Positions 31,201-57,884 of a stretch of DNA of 64,000 nucleotides are shown here, one piece after another (within the stretch, counting starts at the first letter, position 1; each line of letters starts with the position of its first letter). A model generated the notes under the pieces. That model ran no database searches, was not told the origin of the DNA, and saw only the letters and a program-made list of their open reading frames with translations. A program made the position numbers and the translations under genes. Source of the stretch: Marsupella aquatica (lineage: Eukaryota > Plantae > Marchantiophyta); the NCBI GenBank assembly GCA_973895155.1, contig OZ316891.1, positions 18,873,048 through 18,937,047 on the forward strand, in the 5' to 3' direction.

Positions 31201-33869
31201 TGGTAAATAATATCGTTCTCGAATGATACTGCTGGGAAGCTAATATAACATTAGATCAAGTCCTGCAGCTATAGCAGGCATGCACATACACCCCACATGG
31301 ATAGATTCTCTGGATCAAGGTGAATCAAGCACAGTAGAAAAGCCGACAGCATCGCTACTGCTCACTCGGACAGCAAGCTTGTGTGGGGAGCAACAGTAGC
31401 GGCTGCTCCGTGTGTACAAACCTGCAACTCGAGATGCCGGCGTTTCTGTTCGATGAGGGCCCGGACCACGAAGGATCGCACTTTTGCAACGTCCACTACT
31501 TTCTTCTCGAAGGCGGGGTTTGGGAGCCAGTTAAGCAACGGTAGAAAATCCCGCCAGTCCACAGTGATGACAGACTTCATGGGATTCACGACCAGATGAT
31601 CAAAAATGTCCCATAGCTCCAAGTTTCCCAACTCCGGCACGTACACACTCTCCGGAACGTAACCCAGGATCTGAAGACAGTTTACGTTACAACGAGCTAA
31701 CAAGAATCAGATGCTTGTCACAACAAACCACAAGAAGGCATCATGTGCATACTATGGTGTCGGCGTAGTTAACATCGAGGAAAGACAAGGAAGTCCTAGT
31801 ATGAGCTAGCAGTTTGGTGAGCTTCATTGGAAGGTACAGGAACTAGGCGGGGAACTAAGACGGCGGATCTGCCAGAGGGCCGGGGAGCACGTTCAAACAC
31901 AGTCTGCAGGGGGTGGAAGGGAAAGTGCTAAAAAATCACTAATAGACGATGTTAAACTGTGCTATTAATGATCAAAACATCAAACTTTCCTTGTTATCGC
32001 TAAAATGCTCAGTTTCCCGCTCCGGGGCAGGCCAAGGTCAGACTGAGAAGTGAAGACAGTCTTGAACAGAACGGGGGTCTAAATGTTTAAAGAGGCAATA
32101 GGAATGATATCAGATACCAATGAAACCTTTTGGCACCCGGGTAGAAAGGAAAAACAGGATTGAAGTAATATATGGTCATGATCAGTCAATTGTAGCAACA
32201 CAAGGCATGAATGAATGATAGCCTGAGATAGAGAACCTGGTGCATCACGAAGTGGAATAAGTAGTGCTTGATAGATTCTCTGACGTTCACCAGGCCAGAT
32301 GATCCGTCTAGTTTCAGAAAGACTCCATCTACAACACTCTCCAGCAATTGCTCGCGAAGGAAACTCATCGATTTCTGCGCAGCAAGTCAACCAATTGCAG
32401 AGATTTTGAACGAAACTCGACGATTGCCTAGATGACGCAGCTACATTATGTACTTACGTTTTCTCTCATGACATGCACTGAATTCAGACCCGACCTACCC
32501 ACAAACTAACCAATTCATGTTCATGACAAATTTATTCCAATGTAAACCTTCCAAGGTACGCTCTTGCTACTTCAACAAGATCAGCACGAGCTCTGGGAGG
32601 TATTTTAACGAGCGAGAAGAAACTTGTCTAGATACTAGATACCAGAAGAGCACAAACCTGGGGAGCGCTTGCCAGAACTCGGCTTGAAAGCAGCTTCTTC
32701 AGCTTGCGGTACTCATCGCCATAATCACTTAGTGCTACGAGATTCTTGTCCTTAGACCAAACTTTCAGATTACTCAGAAGTTTCCTCTTGGACAATTTTT
32801 CGAACTTCGTCACGGCAGCCTTTACATTCATCCATCATGCCACCAAAATTCAGAGGGGTTCATCGAGATAATTCTTAATTCTAAAACTTCCAAGTTTTGA
32901 GCAAATAAGAGGGGAATATTATGCCGTTATTGATCTGCTTTGACTACGTGACTACTAGCTTCATATGGCTTATGATTCATTCTAATTCTAACTTTTTGTG
33001 ACAATTTAACAATTGTTTACCTCCTTAACAAGCTCTGGAGAGGTAATGACGACGTATTTGAAGGGACCGAGGTTGAGCTGAAAAATGGGCCCAAATTTCT
33101 CGGAGAGGTCGGTTATTGTTCGGTGAGGCTTCTGCGATTTCAGCTGCAGCAAGTTTCCAATAAGTGGCAACCCACCCGGCACACCTGTACATCATATTTG
33201 ACGCACAGTGGAGAAAATCGTTTTAGGTGAACGTTTTGCAAGAAAACGCTCACTGTAGAAACAGAAAATAAGTAAATAAATTGCCGATGAACATGCGTTA
33301 GTAATCTCAATTAAAGTAGTAACGAAATTTTCAAAATCGTTCCCTCAAGATCACTCGGAGATTTGTCTAAATTTTAACACTTTCCCTGGAGCCGACTATC
33401 CATTACCGCCCAAGGAGAACGTGCGAAGCCGAGGGATCGAGTCTTCGGTATTCAGGAACAGGGAAAGAAACGGCTATATGAAGACAAAGATCGGAAGATT
33501 CATGACATCAACCAATTTTGGGCTGGACGTATCAGCTAGTGGTCATTCACGTACTGCATAATAAATCATTTACCCCAGGCTGCTATGGACCTAGCTATCG
33601 ACCTACTTTGAACAGATGAACACTTGCCACAACCGACCTGGAGGGTAATGCTTTCGTGTCTTGGAGTATCGACTTCTGAAGAGAGTGGTGAAGCCGCCCA
33701 CCACAAGCACGAGGACCAAGAAGAGAACCGTCAACAAAGAATTCTGCCGCAGCTGCTCTAGCAGCGTCAGAACAATTTGATTCATGGAGCTCTGAGAAGA
33801 CTGATCTGCAGAAGCCGCCAAGTCTCTCGCAGCCTCTCCGTAAATCTGTTCGGAATGGGGCTGTGCCAT
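28251..33869 (-). CDS. CYP701: Cytochrome P450 of the CYP701 family (ent-kaurene oxidase-like)
   Basis: Exons 33869(or 33785)-33638, 33184-33021, 32819-32658, 32374-32237, 31670-31422, 30730-30566, 29875-29681, 28595-28251, all GT-AG. TM anchor and PPG hinge; CYP701-type VTKF..LSKRKL..DKNLVALSDY, VDWRDF and WEPIIEGSDT; KETLR; PFGLGRRRCAGALQA heme motif. Confidence 0.92.
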
Positions 33870-34332
33870 GTCGAGCTGATTGATACGGTCCAAAGCTGAG
33901 CTCTTGATTGATGCGGCCTCACCGACGGGGTATGTTCACAGCGCGTAACGTACATCAGAGTCCTTTGAAGCTCGTCAGCCTGAGCTGGGATGCATCGTCG
34001 ACTAACTTGACATGCTGGGAAAGCCAATCTTTGACAATTCAGGGACCGAGGCCGAAAAGGTGCTTTCGAGCAGCTTCAATTGAGCATTGGATCTCGGCAG
34101 GAGCAGCAGTACCTCTATACAGTCAAGTCATCGTCTAGATCGATCTGCTGCAAGGAGAATATTCTTAACCCTCAATATAAAGGGTATGCCTACATGCTAG
34201 CTGCTTTTATCTACAGTGGCGGTCAACTGATCAAAAATTCCTACTCCACACCTTTCAACGTACACATCGAGCGAATACAAAACTACATTACTTGAGCGGC
34301 TTTTTCAAGGCCCAAAGATTGCCAAGCTCGGT

Positions 34333-36427: not shown

Positions 36428-36846
36428 CCAGCGCCCTCACCAATCCTAGCACCCTCACCAATCCCACCGCCCTCACCAATCCCAACGCCCTCACCAATCC
36501 CAGCACCCACGCCTAAGTGCCCCTAGGGCCCAAATGCCTCCACGGAATACCTCGAGCAAGCAACCTAGTGCCCCGTGCACCACTATCGGCCCCTCCCATA
36601 TGAAGCCGCACTTGCTCTCCAACATGACCGCTACTCAATGTTCAATCCTCACAGTCTGCACAAGCAACCAAGCATCTCGGTAAGTAACCCTTCAGGACCT
36701 AGATCTCCCAAGTCTAGCATCCTAACTCAAACTCAACAAACATTGACAAGTAGTTCAGCAATAGGTCCTCCCGATGCCATAAGCCAAAACCTGAACCAAC
36801 GCCCACTATTTGTCCAGAACAACTCCTTCCTTGGGCGCAGCCCGGG
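36428..36846 (-). mobile_element. 3' part of an interrupted minus-strand LTR (LTR-B)
   Basis: Reverse complement of 38000-38174 plus 42521-42710; includes 4 tandem 19-bp gccctcaccaatcc units. Confidence 0.85.
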
Positions 36847-38174
36847 TTCCTAGTCGCAAAACTCGACTACCTTAACACTTAGCTCCAACATCGCTGACTT
36901 TGACGCCGAGCTCCCTTATGGTCCAAGCCCGGATAGGCCATCCGGGGAGGACTGAGCATGGGGAGACTTGTGGGCAATGGGAAGTGGCGCTAGCGAAGGC
37001 AAGGCGCCAAGCTGGTGTCACGCACTAGGGACTTAGACTAGCTGAGAGCTAATCAGGTTGAGGGGAAAAAGGGTTGGGCTTGAGGTCGACCGTCCGGAGC
37101 TTCGGACGGACTTTGAGTTTTGAGGGCTTGAGTGAGAGCTCCTCTTCAAGGGCCCAGGGCCAATGGAGTTGATGCCATGGACAACGGACGCTTGGGGAAC
37201 AAGTTATGGCCCAATCCGGGTTTGGCCGGTCGGGGGCCCCTAGCGGCAATGTGATCTGAGGGCCTAAACATGAGCACCGGGTCGGTCCAATCACAACGGG
37301 CTATAGCACTCCGCTTGCGAAAGCCTAACTACGAAGTTATGGGCGTTGCCAGTTGGTGGCACGCCCAAACATGCAGGATAGGGTCCGGGTTGGGGACCAA
37401 AAGTTTGGGGACCAAAGCTGGTCTGAGGGTGGCAGGTCTTAGGGTTTAGGGTTAAGGGTCTCCAGAAGTATATATATATATGAGGGAAGTGGTGTCTCCG
37501 TGGGGGCTAAGGGCGAACCGAAGTTGTGAGCCACGACGGTCGCGACACTAAGGAAAAATGTCAAACGGAAACGACAATAACTTCCCAACGAGAAGTCCGT
37601 TGGGAGACTTCTTGGGTCCGTTGGAAATCTCTCAAGGAGGGCTACATCCTCCTGAGCTTAGCTGAGTCTGGGGGCACTGTAGGTTCTTGAGGTTTGCGGG
37701 TGCTATCTTGCCCGCATGCCAAATCCTGCCGAAACAACAGCCAAGTCGCGTTGAGTCTCTCAAGGGAACTTGCATTGGGGAGGCAAGGCCAAGTAGGTAT
37801 GGAGGTTGATTTCCAAGGACACTTGGCTCCTAGACCATCAATGGGGCGAGAACCAAGAGTTGGTTGCTAGAGTCGAGGTCATTCTGGTCCCGCCGTGTAG
37901 GGACAAGCTTGGGACAAGCTTTAGGACAAGCTACGCTATTTGGGCCATGAGCATGTCCTGGGGGTAGGGCGGTCAGTTGGTGATGGATAGGTACGAGGGG
38001 AAACTCAGGCTGCGCCCAAGGAAGGAGTTGTTCTGGACAAACACTGGGCGTGGGTTTTGGTTCCGGCTTATGGCATCAGGAGGACCTATCGTTGACCTAC
38101 TTGTCAATGTCTATTGAGCTTGAGTTAGGATGCTAGACTTGGGAGATCTAGATCCTGAAGGGTACTTACCGAGG

Positions 38175-41100
38175 TGTGATGGGTACCCCGTCACGGGAAG
38201 TCACACATAACAGGTCGCAGAGGCCTTTGCATTGTTAATAGCCACTGTAAATAAGCCATTTTTTTAATTTTCAAGTTAATTCCATCCTTTCAAGTTGGTG
38301 CTGCCAGGAGGACTTTACTTTATTTTATTCTCTTCTCAGAATTGTTCTAAATGGTCACGGCAACCTAGGGGGGGAAAATAGGTGGCCTTGCCATTTCGCT
38401 TGAACCATTGTCAAGTTCCCCCTATAAGTCCAAGAGGTTAACTTTTCTTTTTGGGGTTAAATGGGTATAACCACAACAAGGGCCAAAAGAAGAGAATGAG
38501 TTCTTTTGAGAGGTTTAAAGTTTTTTGGAGTAAAGGGGCATTGAGGAAAGGGAGTGAAGAAGTCCATAAGGGGCAGCCCCGGTGGGCGCCACCTGGCATC
38601 TCCATAAGGGCAGCCGGGGCGCATGGCGAGAAGGAAGTGGGGGGGATTAAACCCCCTTAGGAGCCCGCGAGTAGGACCAAAACAGGAAGTGGGGGGTTTC
38701 TTTTAAAAGCCCTCCTAAGGAGAGCACAGTCGGGAGGAAGAACATGCCGGGAGGAAGCAGCGGCAAGCCCATAGGGCTGCGTGCCCAGGGCATTTAGGGC
38801 TCCCATGAGTGAGGAGGGCATAGGGCCGCGTGCCCGAGGTGGTTATGGCCCGGCGAGTTGGGCGAGGCGGGGAGCCACCCGCGAGTGGCAGGGAGCATCA
38901 GGGCCTGGGGAGGGCCATGTAAGGGGAGCAGCCGGGACCCCCGCGAGTAAGCCGGGACCATGGCACACCAAAGGCAACGCGCCCTGCATAGGGCCGCGCG
39001 CCATTAAACACGCCCCGCGAGGCAACCGCGAAGAAGGCGCAAAAGGGCCGCGAGGAAGGAAAAGGAGGGGGCAGCCGCGAGGAGGGAATAAGGCACTGGG
39101 GCGCAAGGCAAAAGGAGGTGTCGGGGTGTTTTTTTTGTTTTTTGGTTTTTTTTTCCTTCTTTTCTCCCTCTTTTGCACGATCCTCTCCTTGCCGAAAGCA
39201 AAACTCGAGCTGTCTCCCGACACCTTGCCAAAAGCTCTCTCCACATTCTAATTATTTTTTAAGCTCTCTCTCTCATGGTAGATTGGTGCCAGGACTTGGT
39301 GGTGTGATTCTTCCGGGCATTAGCGGCAGCAGCACGGAGTGGCTTCTGAGGGAATTGAGGGTAATTGATTGATCGGGATACGGGGGCCGTTTCGGGCCAG
39401 GGAATTGACATTGCTACAGGTGACAGGATTTGGTGATTGAGGATTTGATTTCTGGATGCATGGATGCTGGATCAACCGGAGTTTAGTGCGGCAAGCGTTC
39501 AGAGATACAAGGTTGCTTACCGTGACTACGTTGAGACATTGATTGCAAGAGAGAGAGAAGAGAGAGAAGCTACGATGAGTACTGGACTGGCGGCAAGTTC
39601 CGCACCGGTGATTAGGAAGGTTTTCCGTCGAATTTATCCCAAAACCTCCACCAAGGTGATGGAGGATTGTAGGAATATTTTTCAAGCCACCGGGCTCACG
39701 GAGTTCATGAAGGTGGAGATTACAATCCCTTCGGGGAAGAGTTGGAACATTGAGGTCGGGGTGGAGTTACGTACGGAAGGAATCTACTTTGAATGTCTCC
39801 AGCGGGTAGTGCCCCATGTGGAGTTAGCTAAGCTCCTATTTCTGGAGAACCAGCAATTCTCATTCACACCCCGAAACATAAGGGGAGAGCTCACGTTGAC
39901 AATGGTGGCCGGTTGGGTGATTAATCCCACCTCCACTACTTCCATTCCTCTTTCTGCCGTCAAGGATGCTGAGCACAAGGGATTTCTGGCCAAGGTTCAT
40001 CAACGGGTCCTTGGTAACGTGCAATCCGGGATGGTGAATGGAGAGCATTTTGTGGTAGCTATGGACATCAAGAACTATCCAGCCCATGTGTACGAATGGT
40101 GGCACTACGGGTTGAAGAAGCTATTGGACGCCGATTCCGGGAGTGTGAAACCAGGTGGGGCTGTACATTTGATGGGGTCATTTTTGCTAGCCAGAGCAGA
40201 AGGATGGATTATTTCCCCGGGAGAGGAAGACACTGGATCATCCCTTACCATGAAAATCAGGAGTATTGCCACTACCATCTTGGGGAAACTAACGGAGGGA
40301 TCATCGTCGGCGGTTGGTGATGATAATAGAGAGGAAGAAAACCAGGATGAGGACTCCACAATGGAGTGGCTTGAATCACTTGTGGAAGATCCGGAGGAGC
40401 CCCTGGTCTACGACATTCCTGATGTCTACCTGGCAGAGTTACCAGAATTCCGGGAGGGAGTCCATGAGGGACTCAAGCTAGTCCACGCATTGAGAGATTC
40501 TCTCAAGCAGGCCACCGCCAGAGTAGAGACTTTGGAGCAGAGTGCCCTGTCTATGAAGGAGGTGATCAAGGCCAAGGAGGAGGTGATCAAGGCCAAGGAG
40601 GAGGCCATTCATGAGAAGGTTAAACTTCTCCAAGCAGCTCATGTAGAGATCTCCAACTTGAAGGGAGCCTTGTCCTCCAAGGCCAAGGAAGCGAAAGAGG
40701 TTGGAGTATTGAGACAGGCATTGGCCAAAGAGAAGCAAAATTCTGGAGAAGTGGTGGAGTTAAGAGCCCAGTGGGAGCACTACGGAGTCAAATGGTGATC
40801 TTTGAGACAAGGGCTAAGAGGAGTGAGGCCTTGAGTCTGGGGAAACGGAAGAACCCCTGCACACCTAGCTCCACACTTTCCCCGGATTTGGTCTCCAGGG
40901 CCATTGAGATGGTGGTGAAGGAAGTCAGTGGGAAGTATGGACCCCTGTTGGATGCAGCCAAGAAGAGTCAAGAGAAGAGCAAGAGCTTAGAGAAGAAGCT
41001 CAGGGACGTACGTAAATCGTTACGAGAAGCTCAGGTCAACACGGGGACCCCAGGGATGCCACCCCGATCTGTCACCCCTGGGACTCCCATGGCCACCGGG

Positions 41101-42515
41101 CAGGTTTTATCGTTGGAGTTGCGGTCCGGTGAAGAGGCGGCCTTATGGAAGGACACCATTGGTGAGGGGTACATTAAGGCGTGGCAAGCCTTGGCCAATT
41201 TGAGGAAGCAGGGGAGCACTAGCACAAGTAGTACCCCGGTGAAAAAGAAGAGGAGTGAAGTGGCACTCACTCCAGTGGAGAGTGATGAGGAGGCCCACTC
41301 ACGGGGCTCAAGCCAGGGCACCGTGAGTGAAGAGAAGGAGGATTAGAGTGGTCGTACGGACGTGGTTGTACGGCCCCTTGACTTTCCAACTTTTTTGTGT
41401 GAAGAGGAGGAGGATTAGAGTGGTCGTACGGACGTAGTTGTACGGCCCCTTGACTTTCCAGCTTTTTTTTGAGCGGTCACTCATGGGCTTGTTGGAAAGA
41501 GCTCGTGGAACTGATTCCAACAAGAGGCGGCGATCCTCAAACGGAGCCAAGATGAGCAGGTTATGGCCCGGTGAAGTTGTGTTTACGGGATACTGAAACA
41601 GCCATAACTTGGTCGTCCAATGTCCGTTTCAAGAGCGGTTGAGTGCTTCATGATCAGGAGGAGGAGGGCTATCCAGGGGTGAACTCAGAAGTGCAAGTGG
41701 AAGGGCGCCTAGTTTCGGCCATTGTGGGGTTCCTTGCAATTTCACGGTTCACGGAGTAACGTTGGGGCGCCGTCGAAGGCACCATCGGCCCCATTTTTAG
41801 TTTATGGTTTAGAAGCATGTGTGTGTCTCATGGTTTTAGTTTAGGGGTTTCTTAGTGAAGGGTTTAGCGGCGCCGCTAGGGTAAGCCGCCATCGTTGTGG
41901 CCCCGTGAGGGGTGCTTTGGTGTGTTTTCTTGGTATTTAGGGGGAAAGCCCCGGAGTAGTTGGGGGGGAACTTAGTCTAGTGTTGGTGTTAGGGAAGTTA
42001 GCTCATAGCCTGAAGGGGAATTCAAGCCAGAGTAGTGAGGTAGAGGTGTAGCGCTTGCCCTAGTGAGGCAAGAGTTGGGCAGACGGCAGGAGGCTGGGTT
42101 GTCCTTGCAATGTGTTACCACTTTTTGCCAAAAGATATGGATTTGGTTTGATTCCTCAAGTTTTGGTGTGGCGTTATCTTTTTCGGCTCACAATTGTGTT
42201 CTTTCCCAAGAAGTGTCTAAGGAATACTTGCACGGATTGGTCGACTATGTGAGTAGGGGGGGTGGTGACAGCACTCCACCAGCGACCAGTAGGAGTGTGT
42301 GTGTGGCGTAGTCCATGGGACTTGATCAAAAGTAGAGGGGCTAGTCGGTAGACTTGATCAAAAATTACACTTCCAGGAGCGGAATCAAACATACTCATCC
42401 TACATGCAATAGAATCCTAATAGCGTCCCTCCACGTTTCTGTCATACGATAACAAACGATTTTAGTAGGAGGAAACACTTATTTGTTGTGTAAATCGTTT
42501 GATAAGCAGGTGACA
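38175..42515. mobile_element. 4.3-kb TG...CA insertion with 5-bp TSD (probable solo LTR) containing an ORF
   Basis: Starts tgtgat and ends gtgaca; TSD cgagg at 38170-38174 and 42516-42520; the host LTR sequence resumes exactly afterwards. Confidence 0.85.
39464..41346 (+). pseudogene. Retroelement accessory ORF (444 aa + 191 aa, frameshift ~40790) with acidic linker and long coiled coil
   Basis: Two overlapping long ORFs; heptad-rich region (KEVIKAKEEVIKAKEE); no gag or pol motifs. Confidence 0.6.
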
Positions 42516-42741
42516 CGAGGCGCTTGGTTGCTTGTGCAGACAATAAGGGCTGTTGAGTAGCAGTTGTGTTGGAGAGCAAGTGCAGCTTTGTATGGGAGGG
42601 GCCGCTGGTGGTGCAAGGGGCACAAGGTTGCTTTCTCGAGGTATTCTGTGCAGGCATTCGGACACCAGGGGCACTTAGGTGTGGGTGTTGGGATTGGTGA
42701 GGGTGCTGGGTGGCAAGCGGGGTGGCAAGGTCCACTACTTA

Positions 42742-42884: not shown

Positions 42885-43682
42885 ATGGCTAAAAACACTC
42901 GATCAAAGAGTGGCAAGCGGGCTCCCCCCGCCAAGGGGAGAGCCAAGTTCAAGAATAACAGAAGGAGGATGGGTCAACTTCCCTAGATGAACGTTACAAC
43001 CAGGACGATGAGGACGTGGCGGCCGAATCGTCGACCACCGCAGCAAACATGTCAACTACAAAGCGTCGTTGACTTAAAGGGAAGGAGGTGGCCAACCCTC
43101 CAGAGGACAGGTTAGGCAATGACGGCTCTAACTCAGATGGAAGCAACGACGGTTCAGAGGCTGAATTGGAGGAAGAGGGTCAGGACCCAAATGAAGAACT
43201 TAACCCAGCCTTAAGAGGGTTGGATGCAAAACCAAAGGATGATGTCAAGCCGGATGTCATCGTGGATAATTTGACCAAGTAGAACCAGGGCAATGCGGGT
43301 GATGCCTCAGCCCCGAGAGGTCAAGGTGCCCACAAGACGTGGGGGTATCACCAAAATCCATAAGTCAGAGAACCTAAGGACAGGCGCCCCACAAAGGAAA
43401 GGCGGTTGGAGGACCGTCCCCATACAACCCGCAAGGGCCCAGCCACTGATGATGGTTTGGGTCCGTTGACTCAAGACCAACGACTCATTTATGAGCAGTT
43501 GGAACACAACAAGGGGGCGAAGATTAAGTACTTACTTAGTTTGGGTAGTCAGAGTGTGACACGTCCCAAGGGGGGAATGGTAGTTGGACAGAATATGTTC
43601 CAAGTGAACCAGCTACCGACTCCTCCAACTTACGATTGGGGCTTATGAGCAAAGTGGACAAAAGTTCCTGAGTTGGCTCACC
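42885..43682 (+). pseudogene. Gag 5' remnant of element A, interrupted by the CACTA
   Basis: Degenerate ORF after the PBS; the reading ...QKFLSWLT joins TMEIH... at 54122. Confidence 0.6.
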
Positions 43683-44491
43683 CACTGGTACATATTTTGG
43701 CTTTTTCCGATGCTCTTCTTTCGGTCGGCAACACTTTCCGATACAGAGAAGATCGGTACTCTCCGGTTGTCCCCGCATCGGGGATTTACCATACATTCTA
43801 CATCGGACACATACTGTCCCATCCTATTAGAATCGAAAATAGTTTCCCATTTAAAAACTATCGGAGCATTTCCCATTCTACCTGCATCGGACAATGAGAC
43901 TGCCGCGACGCAAGAGGCGTCCGATAAATAAAATATCGCATGTTGGTTCCGATGAACTGAGGGACGAAAAATTTCCGATATTTTTGGAATCGGAAATGGG
44001 TTCCGACTTGTGTCCGAACCCATTACAAACGGACATCGTTTCCGATGTGGTAAAGATGGAAAAGTTTCCCGATACCTGTAGTATGGCATATTAGTTCCGT
44101 TTCTTTTAATATTAGAAATATCGGTTTTCAGTAGAGCCGGGGTTTTTTGAGGGTTTTATCATCTTCCTAGCTTCTGATTAAGGCATGTTGTGTTTCTGAT
44201 AGGTTTTTGACTCCATTTCCATTTGAAGTATGTGGGAACTCAACTAGGGTCAACTTGAAATGAATTGGAAGCTTTCATTTCATATGTATTAAAAGCACAA
44301 ATATATAGCCACAGCTAGAGCCTAGAGATTTAAGTGGTATATATAAGTAAAGTAACATGCAACAAAAAAATGGTAATGACAATGTAGATAACATATATAT
44401 GCCGAAAAAATCAATACATGGAGGGAAGTGGTCATTAATTAGGTCTAGCTAGTGCTAGCTACCTAGCTTTTACCATGAAATTCCTAAGTAG

Positions 44492-47400
44492 CTAGTTGTT
44501 CTCATTTTCCAAATCTTCCACAACAACTACATTTGGTTGTTCTTGGACTATGGATCTGGATCGTGGAATGTAAGGCATTACAATGGACCACTCAGGATCA
44601 TCTGGATAAGGGAGATAGAATGCCTGCTCAAGATTATGAGGAAATGCAAAAGGATCTGAGGCCCTCCAATTTGAGCTGATGACAGCCCCTGTCTTCAGTC
44701 GTGTGAAGCCGCAAGCATCCTCTTCACATGTTCGATTGTGGCCAACAAGATTCATCCGAAACCATTTGCACTTCAGCACCACCTCTTCCAATGTTGTATG
44801 CGCATGGTATTTTACAACAAGGATCTCCTCTATCTTTCCATAGTGAGCTATAGTAGAACGGATGGGATTTGTGTCAGATCTGCTACTTACAAAATCCTGG
44901 GTGAACCAACCCATCACCCCACAATCTTGTGTAGCTGCCCTCTTGTCATCAAGTCATTCCACACGAAAGTGTCTCCCCTTGGACCACATGGCAGTCCTGG
45001 TTGTAACTGTAAGTAGAGGTCCATGAACCAAGGTGCGCAACTTATCAGTCACCATTGGGAAGTGTGATACACTCTCCCCAGTAGCCACCAAGGCATCCAC
45101 TTCTAACAACTTCCCCTTCATGTACATGTGAAATTTGGGAAATAAGCGTGGTCGTCGATTATTGTGCTTATCCTCCTCATAAAATGTGGTCCACTCCCCA
45201 ACAATCTCTGGAGAGTTATACAACATGAATGCAGTGAGTTTAGTGTGCTCACTAGGGTCAAGAAGCCGTTCTCCCTTTGCACCTGTCAAACGGTCATCCT
45301 CATAGTCTGCTTCTCTTGATGCCTCATCTATCCACCCCCTTGGAGCATTTGAATCAAGTGTAGCAATAATGTTTGTACAATAAAACATGCTCTCTGCTCC
45401 AAGATGATGCTATGCAATGCTACCTTCCACCCTTGCGCGATTTGAAACATAGGACTTCATCACTCCCATGTACCGCTCTACCCAGTACATCCAACGACAA
45501 TGTACAGGGCCTGCAATACCAACCTCACGCACTAGATGTAGTAGAAAATGAACCTGACCATCAAAAAATGAAGGAGGAAGGGCCCTTTCAAGTTTGCACA
45601 CAACCTCCACTCCAAACACCTCCATTGCTGCAACCTCATCCTCGTTCACCTCCTTTTGACACACCCATCTCAACAACTTACCCAACGACCAAAGGGCATC
45701 ACGAAGATCCTCACTACCCAATCCAATAATAGCAATTGGAATAACATGTTGCAATAAGCGATGATAATCATGGGTCTTCAAGAAAGCTGGCCATTTTGGA
45801 GAGTCAAGTCCACCAAATGCCTTGCGAAGATTGGCACTATACCCTGTAGGAAATCGCATAGACCCTATGCGTTTGCGAAACTCGGTCCGCTCACCTCGTG
45901 TCAAAACCCAAGGAGGATGAATAGTAAGGGGGGCATTATCGGGATCCATAGATGGCCAAAAACCATGAGGGCCATGCATCCCCATCTCTTCACAACTCTC
46001 TCTCCAGTTGTTGTCTTTCTCTCCATATAGGTGGCGAATCAAGGACCTCCCAACATTTCCCTCAATGTGCATAGGGTCAAATAAATGGTTAAGTGGCATC
46101 TCAGCCCAATAAGGCAGTTGTGACAATGCAGACAAACAAGTCATGCCACACCGGGCATATTGCAATGGGTCATCTGGATTAGATACTCTCTCCCATACCT
46201 CTTTCCAATATGCACGATCTTTTGGAATAGGTTGTGGTCGTCTATCTGGTTGGCCATCCTCAGTGTCATATAAAAAGGGGTCTCTCCTCCAATCATGGTC
46301 TGGAGGGAGGTACTTGGTGTGACCAATATACACTATCTTCCTCAAGGTCTTTGACTTTGGCCGCGCTATTCCTTCCAAATCAGGTCCATAAGTTGGGCAA
46401 GCTCGATATCCTGATGTGGTCAGGCCAGAAATATATCCAAACCCTGCATATAAATATATATCCCATGCATAAGTAAATAAGTTTATTAAAAGATATATGT
46501 GCTTCTAGCTAACTCAATACATAACAAAGTATGCTAGGTACGGTTGCCTAGCTATGGGAAGGGATAATTTAACAAAGATTCATACCTGGAAGATCATGTA
46601 TGGTCCACATAAGAATGGCCTTCAACTTAAATTCTCGACGTAAGCCCCCCGTTTGCACTCGACCATCATAGCAATCCACACCACTCCAAAGCTTTTGTAG
46701 CTCCTCAATCAATGGTTGCAAGTACACATCAATTTTTTCACTTGCTTAGGACCAGGGATAATCATGGAAAGGAGAAAATGACCCTTCTTCATGGACATCC
46801 ATGGAGGGATGTTGTAATTAGTAAGGACCACTGGCCATAGTGAATATGGTTGGGCCTTACCTGCTAGTGCAAATGGGCTGATGCCATCCGCTGCCAATCC
46901 TAGGCGAACATGACGTGGGTCAGTTTGGAACTCACCCCATCTCTCCTCCACAAACTTGTTTGCAGGGGAGTCAACCATCATGCGCATGGTGGGTGGTTGT
47001 GAACTCATATCTGAGCGATTTTGGGAATGCCAAACCATATACTCAGCCAACTCAGCACATCTATATTGGTGGCGCAAACGAGGTATAAGAGGAAAGTACC
47101 TCATGACCTTCTGAGGAACTTTTCCCGTCAACATGTCCTCACAATACCTCGGCTTCTCACATGTAGGACATGACGTTGCATCTTTATAAGTGCCTCTAAA
47201 CAGAACGCAATCATTCACGCAAGCATGTATGACTTCGTACTGCAGACCTATGGACTTCAACACCTTCTTTGCCTCTTTCCAAGAGTCTGGCAAGTTGTTT
47301 CCTTCTGGCAAGATACAATCATGCAATGTCCGAAAGAGATCATCAAGAAGTAGGTTGCTTGCTCCATGTCTTTGCTACAAGTTCAACAAAAACATTATTG

Positions 47401-47758
47401 CTGAAAGACGAGACAAGCGTGATCCATCAAATATTCGAGTTTGCGCATGTTGACGTGCTTCCTCCCACTGTTTGGAGGCTGAACTCCTTGAACCTTCTTG
47501 ATGTGGAAGTGGGACCTCAATGTTCTCCCCATCAGCCATGTCATGATCACCATCCTCTATGTCATAGAATTGGTGCATCAAGTCATCCATGGCCCTATCT
47601 TCATCAACTCTTGATTGGGAGGCATCTGGTTCCTGCTCTGGAACATCCGGATCGCCATCTGGTGGTAGAGAGGCATGTCGCCAATCTTCCATGGCCTGCA
47701 CAAGGTGTTGGCGCATAGCTCGTGGTAACACCCCAACATCCGGCTCAACATATGCATT
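44492..47758 (-). pseudogene. CACTA TnpD-type transposase (Transposase_21 / DUF4218 / DUF4216 type), disrupted
   Basis: Motifs IHACVNDC, YFPLIPRL, LGLAADG, WPVVLTNYNIPPW, FDPMHIEGN, KTHDYH, PPSFFD, WMYWVER and HYGKIEEI. Intron 46586-46444; in-frame stops at 47375, 45410 and 44954; frameshift ~46735. Confidence 0.93.
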
Positions 47759-47867
47759 CTATCATACAACGCACAAAACAGATATATACGTTTGAGTTAG
47801 CCCATGGGTTCCTAAAAAAACTACAATATTCTTATATTACTTCAAAAATGGGGAATACACATATGTG

Positions 47868-49171
47868 CTAAGTGTGGCCAGATCGAAAGCCCATCGTGGG
47901 TGCGTTCCATTCATAGTCACAAAACAACTCATCACCCGCCCTAATGGTCCGTATGGCTACTGTCATAACATGATCATCCATATGTGTGACATAGTAAGGC
48001 GGAGTGGGTGGGCCAAAAATCTGAGCCCACTCTACATTAGGCTGGAGTCCACTCCCTCTACCATGTGTACTATTGATGTACCCAGCTATGTTATCTGAAT
48101 GGACAAGGTCCCCATCAATCATCCTACAATGCCAAGGCCTCCTTAGGACCTCATCTGGGTCTGAGTCCATCTGCAATGCATATACCCCCCAAGCTGGATG
48201 TTGGCGCAAGAGGATGTTCCAACTCTCGGATGTATACACAGGCCCAATGTAAGGGAAAAGGTGTTCCCCATCATAGCCATGACGCCAAGGCTTTGGAGGG
48301 ACCTCAATGTCCTCCAAAGCAAATAAGCCTAACCCAACCTCCCCGCCAAGGGTCGATGCCTTCACTATCCATTGTCGACCCCATATATGTACAGGGATGT
48401 CAATGGCTAGGCCACGAGGAATCACAAAACTCTCAGGGTCAAAATCCTTGAAGACACTGATTGCCTTTCCCGTCACATATGACAAGCCCAACCTCCCTTC
48501 AACTTCTATGTACTCCTCCCCTGGTGGAGGCATAACACTCCTTCTAAAGTGCTCATGGGATGGGTCTGTGTCTAGAACTACATGCTGTTGTCGACGTCTA
48601 TGAGAACGTGGTCTTGTGCGTAGAACCCTAGTAGGGGGCGGTGCATCATCCCTACCATGCCCCAACTCTACCACTATGGGTTCATGAACAACATCTGCCT
48701 GAACATGTGCGGGGGTACATGATTTCTCGGGGTCTTCAACTGATGATGCAAGCAACTGTCTAGCACCAGCTAGGAATGCATCATGCCATAGTTGACTAGA
48801 GACCAATGGAGGACGGGCCCTACAACGCACCTATTCAATCATAAACAAACAAAAATTAATACCTGTCTCCTAAAAGGTCTCAAACCAGCCAACTATTATG
48901 ATAGTGTATCATATATAGCGGAGTTCATGTCAAGAAATACCTGGCGAGCTGAATATCCCGGTAAATCACCCTCATGTCGACCATAGTTTTCGATGTGTTC
49001 AATGGACTGCCATGCTTGACGAACCACCAGTCCTTTACATCTAAGACACCAGCATGGAATAGGGCCTAATGGAGGGGGTGCTCGAGGCTGTTGAGGGGGA
49101 GGAGGAATGTCCCCCTCAGAGGAAGACAAGTCAGAGTCGGAATCTGTATCCAAACTCTCAGAAGTCGACAT
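47868..49171 (-). CDS. CACTA-borne SET-domain (lysine methyltransferase-like) protein fused to a transposase-associated zinc-finger exon
   Basis: Exon 49171-48941 (CWCLRC..HIENYG) spliced in phase 0 to exon 48830-47868. SET motifs GLGLFALEDI, YIGPVY, AGYINS..PNVEW and AIRTIRAGDELFCDY; open frame. Confidence 0.8.
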
Positions 49172-50236
49172 TGTCTGCCAATTACACACAAACAAGTCTT
49201 TACCAAAATGCAAGATTGATTCATCACCCTAACTTGAGGTAAACCCAAACAGGAAATATATAGTATGTTAATAATTTGTAGTGTTGGACTTAATTAGTAC
49301 CTGAATGATATCCGCGCTCTACAGTGCCTACTAGGCTCTAAGCCTTAGACTATATGCTAAGGCCAATCCAAAAAAACCTGCACATACAGGCTAGGTGGGG
49401 AAGTTGAAAGATGAGATGACATACATGCAAACCTAAGTAACAAACCAATAATTAATGAAATTAATAAAAATCAATGACGAGTTGGATGTCCAATTATAAA
49501 CTCCCACAAGTAACGCATATATCATGTCAAATATTTCCAATACATTTTGGAGGAGCATATATGTCATACCTTTTGGATGCGCGTACTCTCGCTGTGCATA
49601 ATGCATTGGCAAAAATAAACCCTACTAAGAAAACCAAGGAAAAGCAACGACCCGACCCTCCAAAAACAAAAAATACAAAACTGCACAAAACGGCACTAGA
49701 GTGTTAATTTAATTTGTGACTTCTTATAGTCCCCAAAAGTTGCACCATGCATATAGCATTGCCTCATGGTCAAAATGGGAATCATTTAAAATCAAACTGA
49801 AAATAGATCTGGGTACATACATTCAATGATCATCCATACCCACCAAAAAATAGTGTGCTAGCTTTGTCACGGCAACTGTACGTTGATATGCCCGTTTTGC
49901 GCCGCACACCTAATAAGCCCACAATATAGCATAATTAACCCCCAACTAACATAAAGGGGGTCATTATAGTATACATGGGATCCAAATGCCAAAGTCCAAA
50001 TGCCAAGGTCATGCGATTCACAAACCATCAGAAAATACATTGGGAGGGTTAAGTCCAATACTTTGGAGGAGGGGTCCGATACTAAGTCCGATTGACCTAG
50101 AATCGGAGTTTCCGATGCATAAAGTATCGGACGTTATGCATTTTGGGTTTTTAGGTCACCCGACTAAAGTGCGAGGGCACTCTAGTCGGGAAAAGCATCG
50201 GGAGCATTTCACGATACCTTTGCGGAGCTCGTAGCG

Positions 50237-53200
50237 ATGGAAGGGAATGCGGGAGGGATGGGAGATGGTGCCGGGCCATCAAGCAGCTATGGTGAAGTCA
50301 TGGCTCAATTGTTTAGGGAGAAGGTGGGGCTCTCGCCGGAGATTGCATTGCAGGTAGCTCAGCTCACTCAAGGACTGATCGACAGCTCCCAGAAGGTAGC
50401 CATCACTGATGCAGAAAAAGCTTTCCAAGCCAGACTCGAGGAGGAGAGATTGCAGAGGAAGAGGAAACGTAACACTAGGGAGGACGAGAGAGAGAGGCCA
50501 GTGGAAGCCCTATCACCAAGACAAAAGGAGAAGAGCCTAAGGAGGGAGGCTCGGGCTGCAAAACGACAGAGAATTCAGGAGGAACGAAAGAAGGCAGAGG
50601 ATAGGGCCAAGAGGCCAAAATTGTTTCTGAATGAGGGAGGTGCTCCACTCTCCAGGAGTTATCGTTTGTTTGGGAGTCAAGTTAGGCAGATTGTGAGGTC
50701 TCATTTTGGCCCAATGGACTACTGGGGGAAGAAGAAGCAGGATGAGAGATTTCGAATTCGAGAGCAAATCAAAGAGAAATTTTTGAATGGGTCGTTTGTG
50801 GACGATCGATTCTTAAACAAAAAGATCTCAGTCTCACTTGCAGACATGCGAAAGTACCTGGCTGAATGCAAACTGGATGAGGAAGTGATCAGGAAAGGGG
50901 GAAGCCCAGCTGGTGAGATTCCTGAGAATGCTTGGTGTGCCTGGCTTGAAGAAGAGTTGCAGGTTCGAGCTTGGCAAGCCACACAACGCTGGGAAGCTGA
51001 AATTCAAGCAGCTCAGAAGAAGATTGAACAAGGAGAGATGGTGAATACTGCACCCATGCATCAAGAACTTGAAGAATGGTCAGCAAAATCAGCCCTGCTT
51101 GGAGACCCACCATCCTGGCTAATGAAAGCTCCGCTGAGAGTAACAAAGAGGCCAAAGGTTACTCACAGAATGGGGCAAGGCGGATCACAGCGTCTCAAGG
51201 CCGATTTTGTAAGTGCTCCATTCCCCTCCTCTCCATGCATTCCTTCAGCAGCATTCCTCCTCCCTAATCACCTGAGGCCAATTGACAAATGCCTAACCCT
51301 TCCAAACTCGGGACAGGTCTTTGTATGCCCGTAGGTCGCTCGATCATGCCTTAGTTTTTTTTTGCTTTTGGCATGTAAGGTCCGATTCTAGTCCGATCCT
51401 TTAAGTATCGGATGCAGCATTGGACAATAAAAAAGAATCGGAACTGTCGAGGGTACCGATTCTATTAGTATCGGACATATTCAAATTTTTGAATAGTTTG
51501 TGCATGAACGCCTAAGTGTTCTTATGGGTCTTTGACGGTGAAGGGTTTATATAGGTGTTTAATTAGGCCAGGGTAGGATTGCTATAATTGACCTTAGTAT
51601 TGGGGGTGGCATATGGTTTGGGTGTGTAGGAGAAAGAGCATGGATGACCATTGTTGCCGGCAGAGAGAGAGCTGGCAAAGGAGCATGGTGCTCGGGCGCT
51701 GAAGATTCACATGGACGACATGTTGGCCTCGGTAAGTGCGGATATTAGAATGATTTGAAAGATGGCTTCATGCTGGTACGTATGTTGCGGAATGACATAT
51801 GGATTGGAGATTGTTACTATGTGCAGGATGAGTCAGGGGGTGAGGAGGACTTGGAGAGTGAGGAGGATGGTGAGGGGGAGGAGGATGAGGAGGATGCGGA
51901 GGATGATAGTGCTTCAGAGGGGAGTGTGGCCGAGGCTCCAGTACGAGGTTCTACTGGTGCACGTGGCCGGTCAGGACCCCGAGAGAGTGGACGTCACCAG
52001 TCTGGTCGGGGTGTAGGTGGCTCCACTCGCCGGATGGAGCGTAGAGCAGGTGATATGCCTCCTTCTCGTCAGAGATTAGCCGGTAGGAGTGGACGGAGTG
52101 AGTCCCGGGTTCCAGCCACAGTAGGTCACAACCGAGGGGTTTGTAGTGAGTCTGGAGTTCTAGCCACAGCAGGTGGTCGAGTGAGGACTGGCCCTGGTGT
52201 TGTACCAGGTGGGTCTCGACAACGGGCTGGTGTTCATACTGGTCGTGTCGTTGGCCATTCAGGAGGTTCAGGCCGTAGTGGTGGAGGTGAGTCTCGCCCT
52301 GAGGGGGGTAGTGGTGGAGTTGTTGCACCTCGTCAGTTTAGGGCTGGCCCTGGTAGTGTACCAGTTGGTTCACGACAGTCCGGGGGAGGCCTTGGTGGTC
52401 ATGTGCCCACACCATCTCCTGTTCATAGTGGTGGTGTAGGCATCCAGTCTGGAGGTTCCGGCCATAGTGGTGGAGTTGAGTCTTGTCCTGAGGGGGGTAG
52501 TGGTGGAGTTGCTGCACCTCGTCAGTTTAGGGCTGGCCCTGGTAGTGTACCAGCTGGTTCACGACAGTCCGGGGGAGGCCTTGGTGGTCATGTGCCCACA
52601 CCATCTCCTGTTCATAGTGGTGGTGTAGGCATCCAGTCTGGAGGTTCCGGCCATAGTGGTGGAGTTGAGTCTTGTCCTGAGGGGGGTAGTGGTGGAGTTG
52701 CTACACCTCGTCAGTTTAGGGCTGGCCCTGGTAGTGTACCAGCTGGTTCGCGACAGTCCGGGGGAGGCCTTGGTGGTCATGTGCCGACACCATCTCCTGT
52801 TCATAGTGGTGGTGTAGGCATCCAGTCTGGAGGTTCCGGCCATAGTGGTGGAGGTGAGTCTCGCCCTGAGGGGGGTAGTGGTGGAGTTGCTGCACCTCAT
52901 CAGTTTAGGGCTAGCCCTGGTAGTGTACCAGCTGGTTTGCAACAGTCCGGGTGGGGCCTTGGTGGTCATGTGCCCACACCATATCCTATTCATAGTGGTG
53001 GTGTAGGCACCCAGTCGGGAGGTTCCCGTCATAGTGGTGGAGGTGAGACTCGGCCTGAGGGGGGTAGTGGTGGTGGTGCTGGAGGGGCTTCTTTCCACAC
53101 TTGTGTCGGGGAAGGAGTGCCTTCCCATGGTTCAGGCGCATCTGGAGGTGGGAGAGTACCAGAGATTGCTTCTGCACCTCATCCACATGACGATGGAGGC

Positions 53201-53323
53201 AGATCAGGTAGCCACGACCATGATGTGCTACCTGGTGTGTCAGCGGTAGAGACTCATAGAGCAGAGCAGCCTAGTCGTTCCCGTGTGAAGAAGAGGAAGA
53301 CACGACATAGCTTGTATGGATAG
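50237..53323 (+). pseudogene. CACTA ORF2 / TnpA-like protein (Transposase_24-like HRMGQGG motif) with acidic tract and Gly/Ser repeats
   Basis: Exons ~50237-51208, 51630-51731 (contains one TGA) and 51826-53323; basic NLS-like stretches; oriented divergently from the transposase. Confidence 0.6.
52289..53070 (+). repeat. 189-bp (63-aa) coding tandem repeat x4
   Basis: Unit starts gagtc..cctgag at 52289, 52478, 52667, 52856 and 53045. Confidence 0.92.
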
Positions 53324-54121
53324 TGGACTAGGTAGACATGTATAGATCTAGTACCAGGCTAGCGAGGTGGATAGTTGGAGGGCATTATGTCCATTTGATA
53401 TGCCCAGCCTTTAGCATAGCTGGCACTATGCATGGAGATGTTCTCCATTTTTTGTACTTTTGCCCTCGATATTTCATTTTTGTATATAAGATATAGTTAC
53501 GCCGTGTCATGCCCGGGTTTCAAGGTACATAGTGTGCAATCAAAATTGATAGTCTCTCTTGACTAAATGACCTCTCTAAACCCTAGATAAAACATCAGTT
53601 AAAGAATTAAATTGCACCCCAATTAAACCCCCAATTAGCCCCCCATTTAAAATAGGCCCAATCAAGCTCGCCAAATAGTTTCCGGGTAGATACCGATCCA
53701 TATCCGATGCCACAATCATCGTACTTTTCCATCCCAAACGTATCGCAAAGTTCGATTCTACTATAATCGCAATTTCCGTTCCAAATAACATCGGACATTT
53801 CCGATGTTAAACCCATCGGTCATTTCCATGTCCAGAATATCGGTCTAGCATGGGACGCCTCCACTAACAGAAAATGCGTGAAACAGACATCCGATTATGC
53901 GGGCATCGGACATAGTGTTTCCCGATAGTTTAGGCGACGGAACTCCCAAATGTTTTGGTATCGGTAGTTCCGATTAGTTTCCGATTGTCATTTTCCGATA
54001 AAATTTATATCGGAAATTGCGATTCTTTTGGTATCGGACAGGTGAGATTTCCGCGTCGGATTTCCTGAAGGCGTCCGATCTAAATACAATCGGTAAAATG
54101 CCTCAAAATGTACTAGTGACC

Positions 54122-54610: not shown

Positions 54611-54704
54611 AAAAGGTCCGTGCAGGCGTTCGGACACCAGGGGTTCTTAGGCGTGGGTGCTGGGATTGGTGAGGGCGCTAGGTGGCAAGGTTCACCACTT
54701 TCCC

Positions 54705-55819
54705 CCTCGTACCTATCCATCTCCAATTGACCGCCCCTGCCTCCAGGACATGCTCATGGCCCAAATAGCATAGCTCGTCCTAAAGCTTGTCCCAAGCTTG
54801 TCCCTACACGTCGGGACCAGAATGGCCCCGACTTTAACACCAACTCCCGCTTCTCGCCCCACTAATGGCCTAGGGGCCAACTTCCCTTGGAACTCAACCG
54901 CCATGCCTACTCGGCCTTGCCTCCCCAACGCAAGATCCCTTGAGAGACTGAACGCGGCTTGGCTGCTATTTTGGCAAGATTTGGCAAGTGGGCAAGCTAG
55001 CACCCGCAAACCTTGAGAACCTATGGCATCCCTAGACCAAGATGAGCTCAAGAGGATGTAGCCCTCCTCTAGAGCTTTCCAACAAACCCAAGAAGTTCCC
55101 CAACAGACTTCTCGTTGGGAAGTTATTGCCGTTTCCATTTGGCATTTTCCCTTAGTGTTGCGACTGCCGCGGCTCATGACTTTGGCTCGGCCCTAGCCCC
55201 TAGGGAGACACCACTCCCCCCATATATATATTTCTGGAGACCTGCCACCCCCGGACCAACTTTGGTCCCCAAACTTTTGGTCTCCAACCCGGACCCTATT
55301 TCGCTTGTCTGGGCACGCCACCAACTAGCAACGCCCATAACTTCCTAGTTAGGCGTCTGCAAACGGAGTGCTTTAGCCCATTGTGATCGAGCTGACCCAG
55401 TGCTCATGCCTAGGCCCTCAGATCTCATCACTGCTTTGGGACTCTGATTGGCCAAACCCGGATCGGGCCATAACTCGTGCCCCAAACGTCCGTTGCCCAT
55501 GGCGTCAACTCCATTGGCCTTGGGCCCAAGAGGAGCTCTCACTCAAGCCCTCAAAACTCAAAGTCCGTCTGGGGGTCTAGACGGTTGACCTCAAGCCCGG
55601 CCCTTTTTCCCCTCAACCCGACCAGCTCTCAGCTGATCTAAGTCCCTAGTGCGTGACACTAGCTTGGCGCCTTGCCTTCACTAGCGCCACTTCCTAATGC
55701 CCACAAGTGCCATGCTAAGTCCTCCTCGGATGGCCTATCCGGGCTTGGACCATAAGGGAGCTCAGCATTGGAGTCAGCGACGCCGGAGCTAAGTGTTAAG
55801 GTAGTCAAGTTCTGTGACT
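54705..55819 (-). mobile_element. 5' part of interrupted LTR-B
   Basis: Reverse complement of 36852-38000; starts (on the minus strand) agtcacagaacttgactacc. Confidence 0.88.
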
Positions 55820-55849
55820 ATGTTGGTGGAGCTTGGGGGCCTCAATCCA

Positions 55850-56079: not shown

Positions 56080-57884
56080 TATTCGCGCGTGATGGGTCGA
56101 AAGAAAAGAAGTGAGGACTCCGGGTGGTGGAGTTCTGCTTATGGTATTCTTCAAGTGTCAACCGGAGGCAAGGTTGTCGTGAAAGGTAAGTGGCACATAC
56201 AGGATTGTTGGAGGGCAACTTGGTTTGTGACGAAGCAAATATAACCACATCTCAAGATGAGATGGCTCAATTGTGGCATTCCAGAATGGGACACATGAGT
56301 GAAAAAGGGTTGGCAATACTTCGTCAGAAAGAACTTCAATCTTTCTAATTTGGAATCTTCTAAGTTAGATTTTTGTGAACATTGTGTGCTTGGGAAGCAG
56401 CACAGGAGAACCTTTGGTGTTAGAACGCACAATACCAAAGCAATACTTGATTATGTACAGAGTGATGTGTGGGGTCCAGCCCCAACTCCCTCACATTCTA
56501 GAAAACTATACTATGTCACCTTCATTGATGATTACTCAAGGTTTGTGTGGATCACATTTCTACACGATAAGTCTGAAGTCTTCCACGCTTTTAAGGAGTG
56601 GAAAGCCCAAGTTGACTATCACACTATATACAAGGTGATAAATCTGTGATCAGATAACGGCAAGGAGTATAGTTCAAGTGAATTTGAATTGTACTGTGCA
56701 GAGCAGGGGATTACTCGCCATCTCATGACAATTTATACTCCTCAACAGAATGGTGTTTTTGAGCGGCTCAACCAAATACTATTGGAGAGATCAAGAAGTA
56801 TGTTGAGCCAATCGGGTTTATCGCATGAAGGTGGTGGCGCCGTCAATTTCCTTATTTGCTGTCAGATACGTTGAGTATATTTGCAGAGTGACTCACGAGC
56901 ACTCATTCGACTTTTATTGAGACGGCGCACAATCCTTGTGTCTGCTCCCGGCTCTCAAAATTCCTTCTCAAATGCGACCTTGAGGAGCGGCCAATTCTGC
57001 TGAGTGGGTACATCCAACACCATGTACCACTTCAACGCCTCGCCTTTAATCAATCCTTGGAACATCCGCTTTTTGGTGTCATCATCTGCTTCTTCGTTCT
57101 GGGCTTTGTAAAGAAGGGCCAAAGCTGGTCACTGAGATGGGATTGGAGCATGGAAAAATGGCTCTTCGTTGTGACAACCAGAGTGCGTTTCACCTAGCTA
57201 TTAACCAGGTTATGGATAGCAGGGTGAAGCACATTGACACCAGGTACCATTTTATTAGGTAAACAATGTATGATAAAATATTTAAGCTAGTCAAGATTGA
57301 TGGAAAGCTCAACCCGACTGATGCTTTTACCAAAGTGATTCCTTTGGAGAGTTACTCAAGACACCGTGCTACTTTGCAAGTTTTGCATTTGCAGCACTAG
57401 GAGAGTAACTTTACAATATATAATTTTTGTATATGGGTTACTCAATCCTATTATGGCTATGGCTTAATTCTAGTTAACCCTTAGTTAACCTTAGTAAATG
57501 GTTTTTAGGGGGACACCTATGATTTTAGGTGATTGTCTAGAATTTCCCGTTGAGTATCTCATATGGATAACAAAAATTGCAGTCCCCAAGACTAGAGTCA
57601 AGGGGGAGTTTGTTAAGGATTGCTCTTAGTCTTGTGACTCAAAGGTTATAGCAATTAGGTTAACCTCAGTTAGGGACTTAGCTGAGGTTAGGTTAGTCGT
57701 GTGTGACCTTGCATATATGCCAGGGCTAGTGTACGTAAGCCGCTGGTATATAGTGCTTGCTCATTGTAACAAAGCAACTTGAGGAAGAGAGAGAGCATGT
57801 GTGTTTGACTACTCTGAAGTAAAGTTGTTATGTTCGTGTGGACGTAGCCTTGGAGAAGAGGTGAACCACATATGAATTGTGTCA
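56080..57884 (+). mobile_element. Ty1/Copia remnant (GAG-pre-integrase, integrase, RNase H, PPT, 3' LTR)
   Basis: WHSRMGH, CEHCVLGKQ, SDVWGP, FIDDYSR, DNGKEY, PQQNGVFER; RNase H CDNQSA..KHIDTRYHFIR; PPT aagggggag at ~57600; LTR starts tgttaagg at 57611. RT is missing. Confidence 0.9.
56826..57120 (-). pseudogene. Antisense Gypsy-type gag fragment in place of the Copia RT region
   Basis: Minus strand reads DDDTKKRMFQGLIKGEALKWY...QNWPLLKVAFEKEF. Confidence 0.65.

Follow-up and report, generated by a model that had tools for sequence, protein, structure and literature searches.

A CACTA transposon of the liverwort Marsupella aquatica with a SET-domain exon placed between zinc-finger-like and transposase exons

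The stretch of DNA analysed here, 64,000 nucleotides of the liverwort Marsupella aquatica (assembly GCA_973895155.1, contig OZ316891.1, positions 18,873,048 to 18,937,047) and hereafter called the window, contains a CACTA element of 10,436 bp at positions 43683–54118 (Table 1). Its right end is an exact CACTA, its left end, CACTG, carries one mismatch to that motif, and the subterminal motif CCGAT/ATCGG thins out to 0.3 per kb elsewhere in the element. When the element is deleted in silico, a gag-like frame runs continuously across the insertion site. Terminal repeats, a 3-bp target-site duplication (ACC on both sides), subterminal repeats in both orientations and a Transposase_21 domain together identify a CACTA/EnSpm element, confirming the first-pass annotation of this DNA, which had described a CACTA bounded by terminal inverted repeats and a target-site duplication.

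Table 1. Positions of the element's ends, repeats and predicted genes within the window.
Feature	Position	Strand	Remarks
Left target-site duplication	43680–43682	.	ACC
Left terminal inverted repeat	43683–43708	+	starts CACTG; 20 of 26 bases match other end
Left subterminal repeats	43683–44100	.	CCGAT/ATCGG, 13 copies
Transposase (TnpD-like) 3′ exon	44492–46443	-	Transposase_21 tail, DUF4218, DUF4216; stops 45410, 44954
Transposase exon	46586–47758	-	Transposase_21, from phase-0 acceptor AG/AAT (AG|AAT); stop 47375, frameshift near 46730
SET exon	47868–48830	-	320 codons and stop; SET core about residues 103–312
Intron	48831–48940	-	110 nt, GT-AG, phase 0, predicted splicing; same join in Calypogeia gene model P0002, matching sites in metagenome loci
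Exon 1	48941–49171	-	77 codons: Met, Ser/acidic and Pro-rich tract, C-x-C-x2-C-x13-H zinc-finger-like module
Internal cluster of subterminal motif	50050–50200	.	5 copies, between the two divergent genes
Divergent second gene	50237–53323	+	predicted exons 50237–51208, 51630–51731, 51827–53323; stop in exon 2
Second internal cluster of subterminal motif	51350–51500		6 copies
Right subterminal repeats	53680–54118	.	CCGAT/ATCGG, 17 copies; contains terminal inverted repeat
Right terminal inverted repeat	54093–54118		ends in CACTA
Right target-site duplication	54119–54121	.	ACC

The element is hosted by retroelement-like sequence, seen as long inverted copies, 84–91% alike, at 36481–38163 versus 42553–42710 and 54617–55820. 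To its left this region holds two long plus-strand frames of coiled-coil character (449 and 240 codons, 39449–41346), which matched no significant Pfam family; to its right are decayed copia-like integrase/pre-integrase fragments (56299–57400, plus strand) with weak rve and gag_pre-integrs matches. Further away, three long plus-strand frames at 5888–9293, two of them matching DUF7869 (E = 1e-36 and 1e-3), probably belong to a further DNA transposon, one whose transposase is of the DDE type. Host genes in the window comprise a pectinesterase exon (11794–12159, plus strand) and cytochrome P450 exons (28251–33935, minus strand), the CACTA nest lying about 10 kb from the latter.

The transposase matched PF02992 (E = 1e-24), DUF4218 (E = 1.5e-24) and, slightly under its cut-off, DUF4216 (E = 1.2e-6). 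It shows the damage that had been claimed for it, three stops and one frameshift, and the copy in the window is dead as a transposon. The second gene is oriented head-to-head to the SET/transposase unit and likely encodes a TnpA-like factor, a label that we presume from its position and motifs. The gene has no Pfam match; its exon 1 gave nothing in Pfam, NCBIfam or PDB that bears on TnpA (Transposase_24 or tandem HTH), and the NCBIfam scan returned zero matches. Within the same gene, a 189-bp tandem repeat at 52184–53097 on the plus strand (about 4–5 units, 85–94% identical) encodes a Gly/Ser/Pro-rich tract; the exon bearing it had no tblastn match in the metagenome loci described below.

The SET exon had been reported as an open 320-codon frame with all four SET motifs in order but without pre- or post-SET cysteine clusters, and this description holds. 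The minus-strand frame 48830–47868 is open throughout, and along it follow GLGLF (48335–48321), FPYIG (48257–48243), NIAGYINST (48092–48066) with PNVEW (48041–48027), and GDELFCDYEW (47936–47907); the frame ends 14 codons past the catalytic Tyr. The Pfam profile search that the first-pass annotation had proposed placed SET (PF00856) above its cut-off of 22.4, at 30.4 bits (E = 5.4e-7). This was the exon’s sole Pfam match: no pre- or post-SET family appeared at E ≤ 1, and the exon contains none of the domains that flank SET in the host SDG classes SUVH/SUVR, ASH, TRX and E(z) (Pre-SET/AWS/CXC, post-SET, SRA). Three details of the earlier description change. The reported substitution of INS for NHS is indeed an altered motif, but its register was wrong, since the Asn is kept and Ser stands at the His position (N-S-T versus N-H-S). 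The interval given for the gene, ending at 49171, does include the SET exon but also takes in a separate upstream exon of 77 codons (49171–48941), on which the layout hinges. Finally, the open frame had been called suggestive but not statistically decisive; at the transposase’s rate of damage, the probability of no disablement is 0.20–0.38, which is no sign of selection on this copy, and the SET frame of this copy is probably open by chance.

On the minus strand, exon 1 is followed by the 110-nt intron and then by the SET exon, which closes with TAG; 109 nt further on, the AG|AAT acceptor at 47758 opens the transposase, and all three junctions are in phase 0. The acceptor itself contains a TAG in the transposase’s reading frame, which makes read-through from the SET exon impossible. 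From this arrangement we infer that the transposase takes its N-terminus from the exon 1 donor, the nearest upstream phase-0 donor, and exon 1 is likely common to the SET and transposase isoforms. A structure model of exon 1 has a hairpin and helix in its Cys/His core (core pLDDT above 90, pTM 0.40); a fold search returned no match, which for so small a domain is uninformative. Exon 1 of the window and of metagenome locus L001 matched nothing in Pfam at E ≤ 10, including Transpos_assoc (PF13963), the transposase-associated domain that its Cys/His spacing resembles, as we take it. A profile of the zinc finger matched 11 of the 196 proteins of the collected set at E < 1e-4, three of the 11 being its seeds. 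Any DNA-binding or targeting role of exon 1 is one that we infer. Further upstream, acceptor- and donor-like signals at 49300–49378 (minus strand) suggest a possible short non-coding exon, and a similar donor is found upstream of exon 1 in metagenome loci.

A homolog search with the SET exon yielded 14 proteins among 402 candidates, the best being Calypogeia fissa CAM6082608.1 (67%), a gene model with the same exon 1–SET join, while a search of longer proteins produced one Riccia sorocarpa model with SET and Transposase_21 among 579 candidates. Profile searching of 1.84 billion representatives (a 50%-identity library) recovered 154, 95 and 46 proteins at E ≤ 1e-3, 1e-10 and 1e-30, respectively, the weakest rows including unrelated or generic SET proteins; a search seeded with a distant clade added two more. 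Organism names were obtained for 13 of 30 looked-up proteins (7 Riccia, 3 Calypogeia, 2 Adiantum nelumboides and 1 Ginkgo). SET-family sequence was joined to Transposase_21 in 3 of 46 scanned proteins, all of them Riccia sorocarpa gene models.

Genomic context came from a metagenome scan in which 24 loci were confirmed from 148 pattern matches; 23 were used and L024 (distant, 25%) was left out, and L008 and L014, identical over their overlap, may be one insertion. Median identity among the copies is 95%. Where at least 450 bases were available downstream of the SET exon, a same-strand transposase followed in 12 of 13 loci at a spacing of about 150–300 bases, the exception (L018) having its SET exon broken off by other DNA; where at least 2,300 bases were available upstream, the divergent gene was present in six of seven, L017 being without it. 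These loci also have exon 1 with its Cys/His module and donor, the SET acceptor and the AG|AAT acceptor, at 34–48% protein identity; the window and each of the 17 loci whose sequence was printed have a stop within a few codons of the last SET motif (with a shifted frame in L009). The idea of a CACTA with its own SET gene, first put forward from this single copy, thus becomes a family-level layout, seen in the 12 loci and in the Riccia and Calypogeia models.

In a quick unrooted tree of 82 rows (near-duplicates, short matches and host SDG proteins left out), the window adjoins Calypogeia P0002; members linked to a transposase occur here and there throughout the core family. The distant family members (P0151, P0154, P0162, P0166, P0167 and P0142) include two Adiantum nelumboides models, plus Ginkgo Gb_21150, and several of them carry a near-identical C-terminal SET on unrelated N-termini, which suggests many copies. 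That tree places outside the plant family two closely similar distant SET matches, L024:10001–10315 and L025:5001–5297, which are 24–25% identical to the query and of which one comes from a Saccharibacteria genome. Among viral contigs none of 41 pattern matches was confirmed, the best viral folds reaching 12–24% identity, and among prokaryotic genomes one of 43 was (24% identity, E = 4e-5); a viral or prokaryotic origin gains no support from these searches, although a remote one is possible.

The first-pass annotation had also proposed dN/dS across family copies, and simple codon counting between L001 and the L002 family gives 0.29 (bootstrap 0.18–0.48): the SET exon is under purifying selection between subfamilies. 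Estimates between the window and the metagenome families were dropped, synonymous sites there being saturated (pS 0.71–0.75, pN 0.36–0.38) and leaving no usable value. Among 20 related copies (L001, L015 and L021 left out), the ratio is 0.94 for private changes and 1.3 for shared ones, and 13 of the 20 carry a stop (19 stops in 4,487 codons); related copies decay neutrally after insertion. Selection while a lineage is active, followed by neutrality once a copy has inserted, is what a transposon gene shows, in contrast to a gene domesticated by the host. Divergence is quicker in the SET exon than in the transposase (45–50% versus 59% identity), and the identities of the two track each other (rho 0.78), weak evidence in that it comes from 10 non-independent pairs, with sister sequences used for three of five elements. 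C>T/G>A changes in the copies affect 14.7% of CHG, 10.9% of CG and 2.2% of CHH positions; with such changes mainly at CHG and CG, the copies are likely methylated and not durably protected. A SET role during an active phase may be compatible with methylated copies, which lend no support to lasting self-protection.

Modelling of residues 103–312, likewise proposed at the outset together with a Foldseek search, gave a confident structure (pLDDT 92.4, pTM 0.88), and the search of PDB returned 390 matches, 268 of them at E ≤ 0.001, with every listed row a SET protein. By VIA structure comparison, Z reached 12.0 (rmsd 3.0 over 126 residues), and Set1, PRC2, SET7/9, SET8 and NSD2 are tied at Z 12.0–11.0 with 17–24% identity, placing H3K4, H3K27, H4K20, H3K36 and SET7/9 enzymes within about 1 Z unit of each other. 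With the SET subfamilies tied, the direction of any chromatin mark is unreadable from structure, and assignment of a substrate by fold was rejected for want of a subfamily that stands out. A single-sequence PDB search with the SET exon found no SET protein; by profile, the best match among solved structures was Legionella LegAS4 (E = 1.8e-5; Foldseek E = 6e-7).

The motifs of SET enzymes—GxG, the Asn that binds SAM, and ELxxxY with the catalytic Tyr—are all present. In a 63-sequence alignment, G168 (60/60), Y199 (60/61), Y217 (60/63), N253 (57/63), S254 (62/63), E301 (54/56) and Y306 (52/54) are near-invariant, while Y194 of motif II is Tyr in 43 of 61 sequences and Phe in 17. The usual His of the NH motif, common but not universal among SET methyltransferases, is absent, with Ser in its place in 62 of 63. 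LegAS4 also lacks this His, having Phe there, and is reported to trimethylate H3K14 in a source that also covers the roles of GxG and the catalytic Tyr (PMC10653858). Loss of the His need not therefore mean a dead enzyme.

Our best explanation, to which as a whole we would give an even chance, is a SET exon set between a zinc-finger exon and the transposase, two splice products and a predicted chromatin-marking methyltransferase that would aid the element. One promoter would serve both products through alternative splicing or polyadenylation, which we consider very likely. The zinc-finger exon would be spliced either to the SET exon, giving a zinc finger-SET protein of about 397 residues, or past it to the transposase, giving a zinc finger-transposase. 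The former would be a SAM-dependent lysine methyltransferase, and we hold it quite probable that this putative enzyme is active. The shared zinc finger would bring the methyltransferase to the places where the transposase goes, and there it would mark chromatin in the element’s favour; that the predicted substrate is a histone or chromatin-bound, and that the modification serves the element’s own expression or mobility, we hold to be a little short of evenly balanced. Against a histone mark used for self-licensing stands Arabidopsis Spm, where anti-silencing is attributed to TnpA, with no SET reported (10.64898/2026.08.24.746577). A bolder version strikes us as doubtful: an old land-plant CACTA would encode, as a splice variant of its transposase, a zinc finger-SET histone methyltransferase that writes an activity-keeping mark on the element’s own copies, its SET family lying outside host classes and having distant members in a fern and in Ginkgo.

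An active enzyme may instead modify a non-histone protein, such as its own transposase, the TnpA-like factor or a host silencing protein. The domain is a minimal SET, free of pre-SET, post-SET and reader domains, SET7/9 and SET8 are among its tied best folds, the SET and transposase products are likely co-expressed from one unit, and SET proteins are reported to methylate non-histone substrates (PMC10653858). Most of the tied structural neighbours nevertheless act on histones, and we regard a non-histone substrate as unlikely.

Should the enzyme write a repressive mark, it could limit its own element or silence host defence genes or rival elements. The close fold matches include structures of PRC2/EZH2 and SUVH, CG/CHG deamination is heavy in related copies, and the family alignment has a small residue (C, A, V or I) two places before the catalytic Tyr, which on the switch rules as we understand them presumably fits multiple methylation. 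The fold matches do not separate marks, however, and hosts methylate old copies by default, leaving this reading quite improbable.

Very improbable, in our view, is a catalytically weak or dead SET domain that is kept as a binding module with a structural role. The exchange of His for Ser, the Phe variants in motif II and the faster divergence of the SET exon would fit it, but hardly any sequence departs from the terminal Tyr or from the Gly and Asn that bind SAM, and LegAS4 is active with the same His missing.

The three Riccia models that join SET-family sequence to Transposase_21, and a donor-like GAA|GTAATA at 47840 in the window copy, could point to a zinc finger-SET-transposase fusion, akin to SETMAR, as the true product of a live element. 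That donor sits after the SET stop, however, the stop itself is retained in the window and in every printed locus, and the Riccia models are automated, P0097 and P0107 having partial SET domains only, so that a fusion is highly improbable. A one-off Pack-CACTA capture of a host SET fragment, decaying neutrally as recent copies do and of a kind frequent in CACTA elements according to PMC8195511, is scarcely credible given the same position (12 of 13 loci), phase and stop among elements with saturated synonymous sites, the dN/dS of 0.29 between subfamilies and the 95 representatives at E ≤ 1e-10 in the 50%-identity library, and the lone decaying capture that the first-pass annotation named as its refuting case is not borne out.

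The initial premise that SET cargo is unprecedented was too strong: published accounts describe SET genes in HarbingerS, in MuDR elements of oomycetes, in Helitrons and in the Plavaka elements of red algae. Plavaka belongs to the EnSpm/CACTA superfamily, and its red-algal accessory gene PAG2 is reported to carry a SET domain (bioRxiv 10.1101/2025.02.11.637652). There, too, an EnSpm-superfamily DNA transposon stably carries SET, and PAG2 is proposed to modulate transcription; unlike the exon described here, however, PAG2 is depicted as a separate accessory gene combining an N6-adenine methylase with SET, in a three-gene cassette within elements of 17–19 kb. The Marsupella element has a SET-only exon between exon 1 and a plant-type Transposase_21, and its likeness to PAG2 is drawn here from domain content; the N6-adenine methylase PF01555 gave no match in 14 window frames or in the 46 relatives scanned. 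SET genes in HarbingerS and Phytophthora MuDR families (cited in PMC12730594) and Helitron SET captures (mentioned in 10.1101/2025.02.11.637652) are likewise read as putative counter-silencing cargo. Those belong to other superfamilies and hosts, whereas the Marsupella element has CACTA ends, Transposase_21 where a Harbinger-type transposase would stand, a first exon that is likely shared, and a land-plant host.

Maize En/Spm and Arabidopsis Spm3 share with the Marsupella element CACTA ends, a 3-bp duplication, subterminal repeats and Transposase_21, likely two products per unit, and element-encoded epigenetic regulation, a function that is predicted here. SETMAR/Metnase, whose SET domain was found at VIA Z 8.5, also unites SET and transposase in one locus; we take it to be one host gene, domesticated and fused to a mariner transposase, whereas in the Marsupella family the SET exon is closed by a stop and is carried by mobile elements present in many copies. 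In En/Spm, TnpA and TnpD are reported to arise by alternative splicing (PMC8195511, PMC13547354), and TnpA is not known to have such an enzyme domain; the alternative product of the Marsupella element would be a SET protein. Arabidopsis families with separate genes have them head-to-tail (PMC13547354), unlike the head-to-head TnpA candidate here. LegAS4/RomA resembles the Marsupella protein as a compact SET without cysteine clusters and with a similar GN..YIN motif lacking His, but is bacterial, 21–26% identical and reported to depend on ankyrin repeats for activity (PMC10653858); so weak a match says nothing about origin or substrate.

A putative anti-silencing role for the SET exon is plausible. 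VANC of VANDAL (MuDR) offers a parallel as an element-encoded anti-silencing factor, but is not a SET enzyme and has a demonstrated function, whereas the Marsupella SET, for which the role is a possible one, is known from sequence and model. The plant anti-silencing factors VANC and TnpA are reported to act through DNA binding and host demethylases, with TnpA recruiting host DNA demethylases (10.64898/2026.08.24.746577). The literature covered, which lies outside Repbase, subscription journals and supplements (including the Bostrychia curated-element table), yielded no published land-plant CACTA with a SET exon. Transposons with SET genes are known; for the land-plant CACTA lineage, and for the first exon that its products likely share, this literature gave no published description.

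If the proposed reading is true, a lysine methyltransferase encoded by the element itself would write marks directly in the conflict between host and transposon, and a shared first exon would tie that methyltransferase to the transposase. The minimal domain of 210 residues is easy to express and assay, making the function of transposon-borne SET genes testable in tractable bryophytes, and annotations of ‘SET domain-containing protein’ in liverwort genomes include transposon genes.
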